Assembly: GCF_055900595.2 (NCBI RefSeq) | Contig: NZ_CM148325.1 | Strand: one strand, 5' to 3' | DNA: 64,000 nt | Shown here: one piece after another, positions 17,893-22,838 of the stretch | Numbering within the stretch: the first letter of the stretch is position 1 | How the letters are laid out: each line of letters begins with the position of its first letter | Position numbers and translations under genes: made by a program | Notes under the pieces: generated by a model | What the model was told of the DNA's origin: nothing | Databases searched by the model: none | Seen by the model: the letters and a program-made list of their open reading frames with translations, nothing else

Positions 17893-18606
17893 TCAGAGCG
17901 GATTCTTTTTGTTGCGAATCAGGTTGAGACTTTCAACCGCAATAGAGAAGAACATCGCGAAGTAGATGTAACCTTTCGGTACGTGGATGTCGAAACTTTC
18001 CAGAATCAGGGTAAAGCCCACCAGAATCAGGAAAGAGAGCGCCAGCATTTTTACCGAAGGATGGCGTTCGACAAAATCACCAATCGAGCGCGCGGCAAAC
18101 ATCATCACGCCTACGGCAATCACCACGGCTGCCATCATAATAAACAGGTGATCTGACAGACCCACAGCGGTAATCACCGAGTCGAGGCTGAAGATAATAT
18201 CCAGCAGCATAATCTGCACGATAGCGCCGAGGAATGATGAAACGCGTGTTTTCAGCCCTTCTTCTTCACCTTCGATGGATTCGTGGATTTCCTTACTGGC
18301 TTTCCAGATAAGGAACAGACCTCCCAGCAGCAGAATCAAATCACGGGCGGAAATTTCCTGACTGAATATTGTAAAAAGCGGATTCGTCAGGCGCGTAACC
18401 CAGGCGATGGATGCCAGCAGCGCCAGACGCATAACCATGGCTCCCGCCAACCCCAGACGGCGCGCATGTGCACGTTGTGCTGTGGGGAGCTTTGCCACCA
18501 CCAGAGAAAGAAAAATAATATTGTCGATCCCAAGAACGATCTCCAGCAGCGTCAGCGTACCGAGCGCAAGCCAGGCGTTAGGATCGGTTATCCATGCAAA
18601 TAACAT
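17893..18606 (-). CDS. ygdQ: TerC/UPF0053-family inner membrane protein
   Basis: 237-aa multi-pass membrane protein; position between ygdR and mutH. Confidence 0.88.
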
Positions 18607-18674
18607 CTAAAAAGCCCTGCCAAAAAAATGAAGCGGTAATTATATGCCCGGAAAGCGGCAGGTCAAAGCGATGG

Positions 18675-19364
18675 CTACTGGATCAGAAAATGACGGGCCA
18701 GTAGCGCACTGGTGAAATTCTTCTTCAAATAAAAGCCACGCGGCAGCGTCAGAATCCGTTCGCCCCGGGCACCAATGGCTTCGGTAAGCGCTTTCGCATT
18801 CGCTGCTTTCGGGCGTATCTGTAAATACTCCCCGTGACGAGCGGTGATCCGCTCAACCTGACCGAGAACAATCATATCCATTAATTCTTCCCAGTCTTCG
18901 CGCAGTTGCCGGTCTTCCTCTTCATTCGGGCTCCATAGCAATGGTGATCCTACGCGACGCTGCGCCAGCGGGATGCTGCGCTCGCCTTCAACCGGTATCC
19001 ACAGTACGCGTTTGAGCTTGTGGCGCACGTGGCTGGTTTCCCAGGTCACCCCGCTATTACCCGTTAACGGGGCAACACAAACGAATGTTGTTTCCAGCGG
19101 ACGACCAAGACTATCCACAGGGATAGTTTTAAGTTCCACGCCCAGAGCAGCAAAATCTTGCTCAGGTTTACTCCCTGCGCTGGCACTTAGCCAGATCTCC
19201 AGTAACACGCCAATCCAGCCCTTATCGCGTTTTAAATTCTCCGGCGTCACCAGCCCGGCAAGTGCCGCCAGTTCTCCCAATGTATAACCAGAAAGTTGTT
19301 GTGCTTGCGCTAACAATTGTTCTTCAGTTTCGGGAGGAGAGAGCAGTGGGCGAGGTTGGGACAT
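18675..19364 (-). CDS. mutH: DNA mismatch repair endonuclease MutH
   Basis: 229 aa; MutH sequence ([33 protein letters not shown]...). Confidence 0.95.
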
Positions 19365-19549
19365 GTCATGATACCTTGGTTAAAAAACAAACAGCACTTC
19401 TGTGCCGAATATTCGCAGTGTAACTTTTTCCACATGCGTTGTTCAATTCTCTGATTTATATTGCTTTTTAGATTGTCGGTAATCGAGTTGCGCAACACTG
19501 CAACGGGTTTTCCAAATCTGGTCACTGAAAATAAACAGGATCTTACACC

Positions 19550-19696
19550 ATGTTATCCACAGAAAGCTGGGATAACTGTGAAAAACCTCCACTACTGTTT
19601 CCATTTACAGCCTTGACGTGCGACGAAACTCCAGTTTTTAGTGGTTCAGTGCTTAACTTAGTGGCACATTCTGTGGATAAATACGGCGTTGGTTGA
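19550..19696 (+). CDS. ygdT: Small 48-aa ORF in the mutH-rppH intergenic region
   Basis: ATG at 19550 preceded by agga RBS; encodes MLSTESWDNCEKPPLLFPFTALTCDETPVFSGSVLNLVAHSVDKYGVG. Below the ORF-track length cutoff. The symbol is a tentative recollection of a K-12 small protein at this position. Confidence 0.35.
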   Translation: MLSTESWDNCEKPPLLFPFTALTCDETPVFSGSVLNLVAHSVDKYGVG

Positions 19697-20048
19697 TCTT
19701 TCGCCAACCTGTAAATGAGAGGTGTGACTTGGGTCACGAATTACTCCTTTTTATTACTTAAATTACATGTAATGCATTGACTAATAATGATTATTTTAAA
19801 ATGTCGATATCAGGCTTATTCAGAATGCTCCGGGTTTTCCCGTAGTAATTCCGTAGTTCTTCACAACTCTATCCACAGAAAAGGTGAATAAAAACGGCTA
19901 TCCACCCCTTCCTCTGTTTATAACTCTGCACATAACTGTGAGTTATTCAATTGTTATTAGTGTGTAATGCCCTGCAGAGAGTGGTTTACCGTCTTCATGG
20001 AGTATGAAACAATCATTCGTATATAAAGCTTTATTTTGAGGTAGTCCG

Positions 20049-20579
20049 GTGATTGATGACGATGGCTACCGCCCAAACGTAGGTATCGTGATTTGTAATC
20101 GCCAGGGGCAGGTAATGTGGGCCCGGCGATTTGGTCAGCACTCCTGGCAATTTCCGCAAGGCGGAATTAACCCAGGAGAATCCGCAGAACAGGCGATGTA
20201 CCGTGAATTGTTTGAAGAAGTAGGATTAAGCCGCAAAGACGTTCGAATCCTTGCTTCAACGCGTAACTGGTTGCGCTACAAATTACCGAAACGTTTGGTG
20301 CGTTGGGACACGAAGCCGGTTTGTATCGGCCAAAAACAAAAATGGTTTCTCTTGCAGCTGGTGAGCGGCGATGCAGAAATCAATATGCAAACCAGCAGTA
20401 CACCAGAGTTTGATGGCTGGAGATGGGTAAGTTACTGGTATCCGGTCAGACAGGTGGTGTCATTTAAACGTGATGTCTACCGTAGGGTAATGAAAGAGTT
20501 CGCGAGTGTTGTGATGGCGCTGCAGGATAATACGCCAAAACCACAAAACGCATCTGCTTATCGACGTAAAAGAGGTTAA
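20049..20579 (+). CDS. rppH: RNA pyrophosphohydrolase (Nudix)
   Basis: 176 aa, GTG start; Nudix box [23 protein letters not shown]; 12 nt upstream of ptsP. Confidence 0.94.
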
Positions 20580-20591
20580 GTCACGCCAATT

Positions 20592-22838
20592 ATGCTCACT
20601 CGCCTGCGCGAAATAGTCGAAAAGGTAGCCAGCGCACCACGCCTGAATGAGGCGTTAAATATTCTGGTTACCGACATCTGTCTTGCGATGGATACCGAGG
20701 TCTGTTCGGTCTACCTGGCCGATCATGACCGACGTTGTTACTACCTGATGGCGACCCGGGGGCTGAAAAAACCACGCGGTCGCACTGTAACGCTTGCGTT
20801 TGATGAAGGGATCGTCGGCCTGGTTGGCAGGCTGGCGGAACCGATAAACCTTGCAGATGCGCAAAAGCACCCCAGCTTCAAATACATCCCCTCCGTAAAA
20901 GAAGAACGTTTCCGCGCGTTTTTAGGCGTACCAATTATTCAACGTCGCCAGTTGCTTGGTGTACTGGTGGTACAGCAACGAGAGTTGCGCCAGTATGACG
21001 AAAGTGAAGAATCCTTCCTGGTGACGCTTGCCACCCAGATGGCAGCGATTCTTTCTCAGTCGCAGTTGACTGCCTTGTTTGGGCAATATCGCCAGACGCG
21101 AATCCGTGCATTACCGGCAGCGCCCGGTGTAGCAATTGCCGAAGGCTGGCAGGATGCCACGTTACCTTTAATGGAACAGGTGTATCAGGCATCAACGCTG
21201 GATCCGGCTCTGGAACGCGAACGACTGACCGGGGCGCTGGAAGAAGCGGCAAACGAGTTTCGCCGCTACAGCAAACGCTTTGCCGCCGGTGCACAAAAAG
21301 AAACGGCGGCTATTTTCGATCTTTACTCGCACCTGCTTTCGGACACCCGGCTGCGTCGCGAATTGTTTGCCGAGGTTGATAAAGGCTCGGTGGCAGAGTG
21401 GGCGGTAAAAACGGTCATTGAAAAATTTGCCGAACAGTTTGCCGCGCTAAGCGATAACTATCTCAAAGAGCGGGCTGGCGATTTACGTGCGCTGGGTCAG
21501 CGATTGCTGTTTCATCTTGATGACGCTAATCAAGGGCCGAACGCCTGGCCGGAACGTTTCATTCTGGTGGCAGATGAACTGTCAGCGACAACGCTTGCTG
21601 AGCTGCCCCAGGATCGCTTAGTCGGTGTTGTCGTGCGAGATGGCGCAGCCAACTCCCATGCTGCGATCATGGTACGTGCGCTGGGGATTCCTACCGTAAT
21701 GGGCGCGGATATTCAGCCTTCTGTGCTGCATCGTCGGACGTTGATCGTCGATGGTTATCGCGGTGAATTGCTGGTCGATCCGGAGCCGGTACTGCTGCAA
21801 GAATATCAGCGGCTAATTAGTGAAGAGATTGAGCTTAGCCGTCTGGCGGAAGATGACGTCAATTTACCCGCCCAGTTAAAAAGCGGCGAGCGCATTAAAG
21901 TCATGCTCAATGCCGGTTTAAGCCCGGAACATGAACAAAAACTGGGCAGCCGTATTGATGGCATAGGACTTTATCGCACTGAAATCCCATTCATGTTGCA
22001 AAGTGGTTTTCCGTCGGAAGAAGAACAGGTGGCGCAGTATCAGGGGATGCTGCAAATGTTCAATGATAAACCCGTCACCTTGCGTACGCTGGATGTCGGA
22101 GCAGATAAGCAGCTGCCTTACATGCCGATCAGCGAAGAGAATCCATGCCTGGGTTGGCGTGGGATTCGCATTACGCTCGATCAGCCGGAGATCTTCTTGA
22201 TTCAGGTGCGGGCGATGCTGCGTGCTAATGCCGCTACGGGCAACCTGAATATTCTGTTGCCGATGGTCACCAGCCTCGATGAAGTTGACGAAGCACGCCG
22301 CCTGATTGAACGTGCCGGACGTGAAGTCGAGGAGATGATCGGTTACGAAATTCCCAAACCACGTATCGGCATCATGCTTGAAGTGCCGTCAATGGTATTT
22401 ATGCTGCCGCATCTGGCAAAGCGGGTCGATTTTATCTCTGTTGGCACCAACGATCTGACTCAATACATCCTGGCCGTTGATCGCAACAATACCCGGGTGG
22501 CGAACATTTATGACAGTCTTCATCCTGCAATGTTACGAGCTCTGGCGATGATCGCTCGGGAAGCGGAAATACATGGCATCGATCTCCGTTTGTGCGGTGA
22601 AATGGCAGGCGATCCCATGTGCGTGGCAATCCTCATTGGGCTTGGCTATCGCCATCTGTCTATGAACGGACGGTCTGTTGCGCGCGTAAAATACCTGCTG
22701 CGGCGCATTGATTTTGCCGAAGCAGAAAACCTTGCGCAGCGCAGTCTGGAAGCGCAACTGGCGACCGAAGTTCGCCATCAGGTTGCGGCCTTTATGGAGC
22801 GTCGCGGCATGGGCGGGTTGATTCGCGGAGGGTTATAG
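20592..22838 (+). CDS. ptsP: PEP-protein phosphotransferase EI-Ntr (GAF domain-containing)
   Basis: 748 aa; N-terminal GAF domain and C-terminal PEP-utilizing Enzyme I domain. Confidence 0.94.
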   Translation: MLTRLREIVEKVASAPRLNEALNILVTDICLAMDTEVCSVYLADHDRRCYYLMATRGLKKPRGRTVTLAFDEGIVGLVGRLAEPINLADAQKHPSFKYIPSVKEERFRAFLGVPIIQRRQLLGVLVVQQRELRQYDESEESFLVTLATQMAAILSQSQLTALFGQYRQTRIRALPAAPGVAIAEGWQDATLPLMEQVYQASTLDPALERERLTGALEEAANEFRRYSKRFAAGAQKETAAIFDLYSHLLSDTRLRRELFAEVDKGSVAEWAVKTVIEKFAEQFAALSDNYLKERAGDLRALGQRLLFHLDDANQGPNAWPERFILVADELSATTLAELPQDRLVGVVVRDGAANSHAAIMVRALGIPTVMGADIQPSVLHRRTLIVDGYRGELLVDPEPVLLQEYQRLISEEIELSRLAEDDVNLPAQLKSGERIKVMLNAGLSPEHEQKLGSRIDGIGLYRTEIPFMLQSGFPSEEEQVAQYQGMLQMFNDKPVTLRTLDVGADKQLPYMPISEENPCLGWRGIRITLDQPEIFLIQVRAMLRANAATGNLNILLPMVTSLDEVDEARRLIERAGREVEEMIGYEIPKPRIGIMLEVPSMVFMLPHLAKRVDFISVGTNDLTQYILAVDRNNTRVANIYDSLHPAMLRALAMIAREAEIHGIDLRLCGEMAGDPMCVAILIGLGYRHLSMNGRSVARVKYLLRRIDFAEAENLAQRSLEAQLATEVRHQVAAFMERRGMGGLIRGGL

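Follow-up and report, generated by a model that had tools for sequence, protein, structure and literature searches.

DARS2, DARS1 and datA are non-coding loci, located outside oriC, that govern when replication initiates in Escherichia coli. The mechanism of DARS2 (DnaA-reactivating sequence 2) has been established for strain K-12 (PMC4245941, PMC8682772, PMC11724364), where the element lies upstream of mutH (PMC4585315, PMC11317965), promotes the release of ADP from DnaA together with IHF and Fis, and raises both ATP-DnaA and initiation in vivo; its deletion and relocation in K-12 result in replication phenotypes. Work on the K-12 element has indicated that the minimal 'delta-Right' version still stimulates initiation, that a 21-mer carrying the Fis sites FBS2-3 is essential, and that DnaA boxes IV-VI are dispensable in plasmid assays (PMC4245941). 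A role in negative feedback by ATP-DnaA has been assigned to box V (PMC8682772), and occupancy of DARS2 by DnaA in vivo is documented by ChIP-seq (PMC11317965).

The window analysed here is a stretch of 64,000 nucleotides (contig NZ_CM148325.1, RefSeq assembly GCF_055900595.2), in which mutH lies on the minus strand at 18675-19364 and rppH on the plus strand at 20049-20579. Taken from the ORF coordinates, the spacer between these divergent genes thus covers 19365-20048 and measures 684 bp, exactly as an earlier, sequence-only reading of the window had it. The gene order, ygdR-ygdQ-mutH / ygdT-rppH-ptsP, is identical to the K-12 arrangement. The GC content of the spacer is 0.387, compared with 0.504 for the whole window, and reaches 0.253 at 19740-19830. 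The window has 62 matches to TTATNCACA when up to one mismatch is allowed, and the spacer alone accounts for nine of them against an expectation of 0.66 (Poisson P = 4e-8), a DnaA-box content far beyond chance; only three perfect DnaA boxes are found in the window, two of them within the ORF annotated ygdT. In addition, 24 published K-12 oligonucleotides or site sequences can be placed in the spacer, following their published order and with 0-4 mismatches. Judged by these sequence matches, the spacer holds the known E. coli element DARS2, which is not a new element; taking up about two thirds of the spacer (19460-19914), DARS2 accounts for its length and conservation. The earlier description of the spacer as AT-rich and probably regulatory was loosely right, but it missed DARS2, an element of replication control and not mainly of transcriptional control. 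The whole spacer is very probably best read as DARS2 plus an accidental ORF, ygdT, with most probably no functional protein-coding gene in it. The features below are given in window coordinates; conservation was scored on an alignment of 80 Enterobacteriaceae spacers (the window and 79 relatives).

18675-19364, minus strand: mutH coding sequence, the left flank; a 229-aa ORF, mutH in homologous RefSeq loci
19460-19914: full 455-bp DARS2 fragment, delimited by K-12 primers (Table S1) at 19460-19478 (2 mismatches) and 19896-19914 (0 mismatches)
19482-19513: Fis site FBS6, where the FIS-4L oligonucleotide maps with 1 mismatch; poorly conserved (mean 0.605)
19521-19620: near-invariant 100-bp block around box VI, from the conservation map and element table
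19541-19562, plus strand: double DnaA box tCTTACACCAtgTTATCCACAg, an exact match to the strongest DARS2 DnaA ChIP-seq peak sequence (coverage 213; PMC11317965)
19550-19696, plus strand: ORF annotated ygdT, most likely not protein-coding; 48 codons, ATG start
19553-61, plus strand: DnaA box VI, inside the double box and between Ksh-34 and Ksh-35; identical in 80/80 genomes
19656-19695: FBS4-5 region with DnaA box V, where the F45L oligonucleotide maps with 1 mismatch
19672-19680, minus strand: DnaA box V TTATCCACA, a perfect box between Ksh-32 and Ksh-33; identical in 80/80 genomes
19681-19701: 21-mer with Fis sites FBS2-3, flanked by the delta-21 primers MutH-25 (ending at 19680) and MutH-24 (starting at 19702)
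19682-19914: minimal DARS2 ('delta-Right' construct), from primers MutH-11 (19682-19702) and MutH-4 (19896-19914)
19724-19755: Fis site FBS1, where the FBS1 oligonucleotide maps; perfect Fis consensus at 19732-46, overlapping a CRP-type palindrome
About 19770-19798: predicted IHF sites IBS1-2; TAATGCATTGACT at 19770-82 is the IHF consensus with 1 mismatch, and the subIBS1-2 primers Ksh-19 and Ksh-16 flank 19777-89
19816-19824, plus strand: DnaA box IV TTATTCAGA, between substitution primers Ksh-30 and Ksh-31; weakly conserved (mean 0.708)
19857-19891: DARS2 core with boxes III-II-I, bounded exactly by the delta-Core primers MutH-15 (19834-56) and MutH-14 (19892-912)
19857-65, plus strand: DnaA box III TTCTTCACA of the DARS2 core
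19869-77, plus strand: DnaA box II CTATCCACA of the core, beside box III
19883-91, minus strand: DnaA box I TTATTCACC of the core, opposite in orientation to box II
19915-20048, plus strand: rppH upstream region, presumed promoter and 5' UTR, with conserved blocks at about 19913-25, 19938-58, 19983-96 and 20006-18 and the rppH RBS at 20035-48
20049-20579, plus strand: rppH coding sequence, the right flank; a 176-aa ORF with GTG start, annotated in RefSeq

The agreement with DARS2 of K-12 (Fujimitsu 2009; Kasho 2014; Miyoshi 2021; Kasho 2025) extends from the mutH-rppH locus itself to the order and spacing of boxes III-II-I, box IV, IBS1-2, FBS1, FBS2-3, box V, box VI and FBS6. The six DnaA boxes, I-VI, are identical to those of K-12 and the spacer as a whole is 97.7% identical, its 16 point differences all lying outside the boxes and 12 of them within the 455-bp element. 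They include an A-to-G change at 19688, the single difference in the FBS2-3 21-mer (20 of 21 positions as in K-12), and a change at 19783 in IBS1-2, either of which may matter for function. Variation at FBS-3 and IBS-2 has been reported among E. coli strains (PMC4585315), and the differences of the window from K-12 are ordinary strain variation. Within the core, which has a mean conservation of 0.957, the GAAAA spacer between boxes II and I is the same in all 80 sequences, and the double box gTTCTTCACAactCTATCCACAg described from ChIP-seq (PMC11317965) matches at 19856-78. The IHF and Fis consensus matches fall at the positions expected for DARS2; some 85-90 bp separate the IHF consensus and the primer-delimited segment 19777-89 from the centre of the core on one side and from that of the 21-mer on the other.

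From its sequence identity to K-12 we infer that DARS2 of the window would function in the same way, regenerating active ATP-DnaA from inactive ADP-DnaA ahead of each round of replication initiation. Following the sequence of events established in K-12, ADP-DnaA would bind the core boxes III, II and I (19857-19891), where the opposite orientation of boxes I and II would hold two DnaA molecules head to head. Bending of the DNA by IHF at IBS1-2 (about 19770-19798) would then bring the core complex and the Fis located at FBS2-3 (19681-19701) together, upon which ADP would leave and the resulting apo-DnaA would rebind ATP. As ATP-DnaA accumulates, it would oligomerise from box V (19672-19680) across the Fis sites and displace Fis, switching DARS2 off.

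Entirely within DARS2, reaching across box VI to the FBS2-3 part, lies the 48-aa plus-strand ORF at 19550-19696, which is present with an ATG start as the sequence-only reading had reported. That reading credited it with a reasonable RBS, a fair description given the AGGA at 19537-19540, 9 nt before the ATG, and associated it with K-12 ygdT, which is correct as an annotation: RefSeq E. coli genomes name the ORF 'ygdT: protein YgdT', including b4610 of K-12 (NC_000913.3 2969330-2969476, minus strand), and 'protein YgdT' is annotated throughout Escherichia and Shigella, in thousands of genomes. The implied existence of a real small-protein gene, on the other hand, is not supported, because the frame is broken, codon periodicity is absent and dN/dS is about 1.7. 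The length of the ORF does not exceed chance: ORFs reaching 48 aa or more appeared in 85% of 2000 dinucleotide-preserving shuffles of the spacer, or in 44% if an ATG start is required, and the real spacer harbours three further ORFs of 51-64 aa.

A real small-protein gene would be expected to stay in frame across related genera and to bear the mark of purifying selection at the peptide level. The ygdT segment stays 147 nt long in 77 of the 79 relatives, and the 48-codon frame is intact in 9 of the 80 sequences only, namely the window, four Escherichia, S. enterica arizonae and three Citrobacter. The ORF is intact in every Escherichia sequence examined; conservation of the frame in close relatives fails once outside Escherichia, with premature stops in about 52 sequences (at codons 10-14, 18, 24-26, 37 and 40), loss of the start in 17 and loss of the stop in about 19. 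Variability at the three codon positions is 0.099/0.122/0.083 in ygdT, against 0.110/0.055/0.399 in mutH and 0.040/0.022/0.261 in rppH, and the median dN/dS is 1.67 for ygdT versus 0.043 (mutH) and 0.036 (rppH) for the flanking genes. The invariant positions of the segment map to boxes VI and V and to GATC sites and do not follow codon structure; the stop codon (19694-96) itself lies in the FBS2-3 21-mer, together with an invariant GATC (19695-98). Conservation within the ORF is lowest at about 19621-19655, a part that overlaps no mapped site. The apparent conservation of a 'protein' is ascribed to DNA-level constraint on the binding sites of DnaA, Fis and other factors, and ygdT is most likely a spurious annotation. 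Searches of Pfam and NCBIfam returned no match for a YgdT protein family, and the mentions of ygdT examined in the literature are typos for YdgT (the Hha paralogue) or entries in gene and deletion lists. These entries stand in the gene lists of a 10.3-kb deletion from laboratory evolution and in a SELEX table; most other literature matches, by their titles, suggest the YGDTDS polymerase motif.

A genuine young small protein, confined to Escherichia and perhaps Salmonella and some Citrobacter, overprinted on DARS2 and translated from a transcript that begins upstream of 19537, is in our estimate quite unlikely. Its intact 48 codons in those nine sequences, its ATG at a workable distance from the AGGA and its annotation throughout Escherichia and Shigella speak for it. 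Against it, the differences within Escherichia (5 over 33 synonymous sites, 13 over 111 non-synonymous ones) stand at about the neutral ratio, the length is as expected by chance, and there is neither a promoter-like site found in the spacer nor support found from a protein family or the literature. Moreover, the ATG (19550-52) lies inside the double DnaA box with the strongest ChIP-seq peak, so that the start and RBS region falls in the most DnaA-occupied site of the locus, and the AGGA belongs to a block of DNA that is invariant even in genomes without the ygdT ATG.

No other part of the spacer is as well conserved or as heavily occupied by DnaA as this block, at 19521-19620, whose divergence is 5-10 times below that of mutH third codon positions. 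Since boxes IV-VI proved dispensable in plasmid assays, the published DARS2 model leaves it unexplained. Its layout resembles the DARS core: a weak box and, after 2 bp, the perfect box VI, followed by GAAAG and an inverted, invariant TGGGATAA (19568-75). It also contains an invariant GATC (at 19539) and an invariant stretch, ACTACTG..ATTTACAG..TTGAC, the latter matching no published site. We tentatively raise the idea, doubtful as it is at present, that the block is an undescribed functional module of DARS2 and that ygdT should be retired as a gene; such a function would have been missed because the assays that found boxes IV-VI dispensable used multicopy plasmids. The block could be a second site of ADP-DnaA assembly or exchange, or a DnaA-titrating or SeqA-timed switch; it could also be a DnaA-controlled, possibly damage-responsive, mutH promoter. 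A candidate LexA box at 19593-19612, an unsupported lead, holds the palindrome CTGT-N8-ACAG at 19595-19610, whose CTG and CAG are invariant in the 80 genomes. The pattern is found twice in the window where 0.68 occurrences are expected, which is not significant, and on a rough matrix, a yardstick only, the site scores 12.8 bits, short of every training site (minimum 16.1) and of the 14.9 bits that the best match in shuffled windows reaches on average. No link between LexA and DARS2 was found in the literature.

Both the mutH and the rppH promoters must lie in the spacer, because the genes are divergent, and it could be argued that the spacer serves mainly as a shared transcriptional control region for mutH and rppH-ptsP, in which the DnaA, CRP, Fis and IHF sites are chiefly transcription-factor sites. 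Conserved blocks do adjoin both start codons, and DnaA regulates promoters elsewhere, including that of uvrB at DARS1. A candidate CRP site is likewise present, a TGTGA-N6-TCACG palindrome TGTGACTTGGGTCACG at 19725-19740 whose half-sites are conserved and whose N6 varies across genera; for its K-12 counterpart ttCGTGAcccaggTCACAcct a CRP footprint obtained in vitro is on record (PMC12871828), and in K-12 genomic SELEX gave a peak of a minor sigma factor between rppH and ygdT (PMC5493296). However, the scan of the spacer found no strong sigma-70 consensus promoter, and the K-12 experiments attribute DnaA nucleotide exchange and replication phenotypes to 19460-19914. As the main account of the spacer we hold transcriptional control to be improbable; it is compatible with DARS2 and can only add to it. 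That one strand of the block at 19521-19620 instead encodes a small RNA or the structured 5' leader of a transcript, with the ORF incidental, is highly improbable, since its roughly 100 nt of contiguous, non-periodic conservation are set against invariant cores that are DnaA-box sequences bound in vivo, a scan of 18500-20800 that found no Rfam family in the spacer at E up to 1, no promoter-like site found, and a sole terminator-like hairpin that is not conserved outside E. coli. This hairpin with its T-run (19392-19407, minus strand), just upstream of the mutH RBS, has a stem that is neither conserved nor compensated in other genera and is a matter of chance or specific to the lineage. The lone Rfam match, to a nematode snoRNA model, lies inside mutH, scores 17 bits where the gathering score is 35, and is due to chance.

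The reading of the spacer as DARS2 with an accidental ORF has practical consequences. To label the region a long spacer with a small ORF is to miss the replication-control biology of DARS2. The gene call ygdT (b4610), carried by thousands of RefSeq genomes, is very probably spurious and superimposed on DnaA and Fis sites, and mutating or tagging 'ygdT' would in fact edit DARS2. The 100-bp block at box VI, more constrained than the essential core and without a role in the published model, is a concrete target for replication control.

Compared with known systems, the ORF shares with validated E. coli small proteins of up to 50 aa, such as MgrB, AcrZ, MntS and CydX, its length, its ATG and an upstream purine-rich motif, and differs from what is expected of such genes in that its frame is not kept and purifying selection is absent. 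DARS1 of K-12, in the bioD-uvrB spacer, has the same core as DARS2 (a weak box, 3 bp, a strong box, 5 bp and an inverted box) and the same proposed head-to-head ADP-DnaA mechanism; unlike DARS2, it is about 100 bp long, does not need IHF or Fis and is without counterparts of boxes IV-VI. Finally, in datA and oriC, too, 9-mer DnaA boxes are clustered and accompanied by an IHF site, at a comparable DnaA ChIP-seq occupancy (213-218), but their box arrays run head-to-tail whereas the DARS core has the inverted box I/II pair, and, differently from DARS, datA leads to ATP hydrolysis and oriC to unwinding.

The divergent mutH-rppH spacer of 684 bp (19365-20048) is AT-rich, with a GC content of 0.387 against 0.504 in the whole window, and carries an ATG-started, plus-strand frame of 48 codons (19550-19696) with AGGA 9 nt upstream of its start; the sequence-only reading had placed these features correctly. 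Of 5,426 complete genomes of E. coli, 5,424 have the spacer at 95-99% identity, and in those genomes the frame is annotated as 'ygdT: protein YgdT' (b4610 in K-12), so that the earlier link to ygdT is right as annotation. The feature that the spacer holds is already known: it is DnaA-reactivating sequence 2 (DARS2), described in 2009, intensively studied since and placed in the literature upstream of mutH. In a scan of the whole window with the DnaA-box consensus TTATNCACA, allowing at most one mismatch, 9 of the 62 matches fell in the spacer, against 0.66 expected (P = 4e-8); of three perfect boxes in the window, two fall within the ygdT frame. Primers, oligonucleotides and site sequences published for K-12 [Kasho et al. 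2014, Table S1 (PMC4245941); Frimodt-Moller et al. 2015 (PMC4585315); Stringer et al. 2024 (PMC11317965)] were also mapped onto the window, and all 24 matched in their published order with 0-4 mismatches.

Features of the spacer and its flanks (boxes I-VI, DnaA boxes; FBS, site bound by Fis; IBS, site bound by IHF)
18675-19364, minus strand: mutH, left flank
19460-19914: full 455-bp DARS2, from the mapped K-12 sequences
19482-513: FBS6
19550-19696, plus strand: ygdT frame, ATG start, 48 codons
19553-61, plus strand: box VI
19656-95: FBS4-5
19672-80, minus strand: box V
19681-19701: essential 21-mer with FBS2-3
19682-19914: minimal DARS2, from the mapped K-12 sequences
within 19724-55: FBS1, perfect Fis consensus at 19732-46
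about 19770-19798: IBS1-2, IHF consensus with one mismatch at 19770-82
19816-24: box IV
19857-19891: DARS2 core, whole
19857-65, plus strand: box III, TTCTTCACA
19869-77, plus strand: box II, CTATCCACA
19883-91, minus strand: box I, TTATTCACC
20049-20579, plus strand: rppH, GTG start, right flank

Only 5 of the 5,424 E. coli genomes with the spacer match it at 99% identity or above, which places the window in an uncommon lineage of E. coli. Relative to K-12, 16 positions of the spacer are changed, none of them in boxes I-VI; one is an A-to-G change at 19688 inside the FBS2-3 21-mer (equivalent to I47V in YgdT), and another, at 19783, falls inside the IBS1-2 segment. Note also that primers MutH-9 (19892-19941) and MutH-10 (19807-19856) of PMC4585315 are lambda-Red homology arms lying on the same strand, an arrangement impossible for a deletion cassette; one was probably printed as its complement, and the location of the deleted core is unaffected.

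The ygdT frame is no more than chance gives: when the spacer was shuffled 2000 times with its dinucleotides preserved, frames of at least 48 aa arose in 85% of the shuffles (ATG-started in 44%), and the actual spacer contains three further ORFs of 51-64 aa. The frame lies wholly within DARS2. A double DnaA box supplies its ATG, through the final base of its weak box together with its 2-bp spacer; codons 2-4 correspond to box VI, codons 41-44 are spanned by box V, and the TGA falls within the essential 21-mer, where it shares bases with an invariant GATC. Conservation of the frame in relatives is the check that the sequence-only reading had put forward. For this comparison 80 loci were gathered by MutH similarity, with one genome per species (Escherichia, Salmonella, Citrobacter, Enterobacter, Klebsiella, Kluyvera, Kosakonia, Cedecea, Buttiauxella and others); 80 sequences were aligned, the window and 79 relatives. 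The spacer alignment has nine gap columns only and the homologous segment keeps its 147 nt in 77 of the 79 relatives, yet the frame fails: no more than nine keep it intact at 48 codons, namely the window, four Escherichia, three Citrobacter and S. enterica arizonae. Premature stops occur in about 52 of the 80 (at codons 10-14, 18, 24-26, 37 or 40), the start codon is lost in 17 (to CTG, GGG, TAC, GAG or AGG), and the stop is lost in about 19, where the frame extends to 53-76 codons.

Variability at codon positions 1, 2 and 3 is 0.099, 0.122 and 0.083 in ygdT, as compared with 0.110, 0.055 and 0.399 in mutH and 0.040, 0.022 and 0.261 in rppH, and the median dN/dS against the window is 1.67, 0.043 and 0.036, respectively. 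The DNA itself is strongly constrained: in comparisons with Enterobacter, Klebsiella or Kluyvera, divergence is 22-26% of sites in the ygdT segment and 10% in 19521-19620, as against 55-60% at third codon positions of mutH. The columns that never vary coincide with box VI, box V and the GATC sites (80/80 identical for each), a pattern that marks protein-binding DNA under conservation rather than a peptide. The proposal that ygdT is a real, young gene in E. coli could draw on its annotation there; within Escherichia only, five synonymous (33 sites) and 13 non-synonymous (111 sites) changes give an about neutral ratio, and we regard such a gene as improbable. The product has no family match in Pfam or NCBIfam, nor has the region in Rfam; in public sources the product is called just 'protein YgdT' or 'hypothetical', and the literature mentions examined either meant YdgT or were bare gene listings. 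The 90%-identity cluster of the 48-aa product (19550-19693) has 402 distinct members, all from Escherichia/Shigella among those listed, seemingly many variants for so short a product, which looks compatible with weak peptide constraint. ygdT is therefore best treated as a named, uncharacterised annotation, with the comparative evidence arguing against a gene.

The steps of DARS2 action have been established for K-12 (PMC4245941, PMC8682772, PMC11724364), and we infer the same steps for the window. The core would bind ADP-DnaA, the inverted boxes I and II holding two DnaA molecules head to head; IHF at IBS1-2, whose binding would need negative supercoiling, would bend the DNA and bring Fis at FBS2-3 to the core complex; ADP would be released and the apo-DnaA would rebind ATP. 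As ATP-DnaA builds up, an oligomer would extend from box V over the Fis sites, evict Fis and switch DARS2 off. When DARS2 is deleted or moved elsewhere, initiation is disturbed and fitness falls (PMC4585315, PMC5010248).

Of the 80 spacers recovered from about 25 enterobacterial genera, 79 measure 678-688 bp (the exception being Intestinirhabdus alba, 808 bp), a nearly fixed length, which suggests that mutH-rppH spacing is constrained well past the 256-bp minimal DARS2. Overlapping FBS1 is a CRP-type palindrome, TGTGACTTGGGTCACG (TGTGA-N6-TCACG, 19725-40), with half-sites conserved and spacer variable across genera; its K-12 equivalent is listed as an in-vitro CRP footprint (PMC12871828, 2026 preprint), and a carbon-source input to DARS2 or the flanking promoters is thereby hinted at as a possibility. 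The conservation map also has blocks within 19915-20048 that presumably contain promoter, leader and ribosome-binding site of rppH; a sigma-70 scan of the spacer gave no strong consensus, and a minor sigma factor genomic-SELEX peak lies between rppH and ygdT in K-12 (PMC5493296). At 19392-19415 (minus strand), upstream of mutH, most non-Escherichia genera have T(A/G)TCCACA-CGGTATAAAAT, a DnaA-box-like 9-mer beside a -10-like TATAAA; Escherichia has other sequence there, forming a hairpin that is not conserved, with a T-run after it. Just two GATC (Dam/SeqA) sites are present in the spacer, both identical in 80/80 genomes: 19539-19542, adjoining the double DnaA box, and 19695-19698, inside the FBS2-3 21-mer and over the ygdT stop.

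What the spacer still offers is the probable mis-annotation of ygdT and an unexplained hyper-conserved block around box VI. The best-conserved part is not the essential DARS2 core but a 100-bp block, 19521-19620, which begins 30 nt before the ygdT ATG and holds the invariant GATC at 19539-42, the double DnaA box that includes box VI and, 5-6 bp past box VI, an invariant inverted TGGGATAA. DnaA ChIP-seq in K-12 gave three peaks in DARS2, the strongest (coverage 213, against 218 at oriC and 213 at datA) being assigned to the double box tCTTACACCAtgTTATCCACAg (PMC11317965), which is matched exactly at 19541-19562. Boxes IV-VI were dispensable for over-initiation from a multicopy plasmid (Kasho et al., PMC4245941), and among them only box V has since been assigned a role (PMC8682772). 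The invariant ACTACTG..ATTTACAG..TTGAC (19591-19617) has no match among published DARS2 sites. Within it, TACTGTTTCCATTTACAGCC (19593-19612) has the LexA-box form CTGT-N8-ACAG, with CTG and CAG invariant in 80 genomes; the window holds two instances of this pattern, where 0.68 are expected, the score of 12.8 bits on a rough matrix of LexA sites is lower than that of any training site and than the mean best of shuffled windows, and none of the papers searched links LexA and DARS2, which together make the LexA box an unsupported lead. The DARS1 core, read from K-12, has the same layout as the window's DARS2 core, and the block at 19521-19620 echoes this DARS core, with a weak box, a short gap, a strong box, GAAA(G/A) and an inverted partial box.
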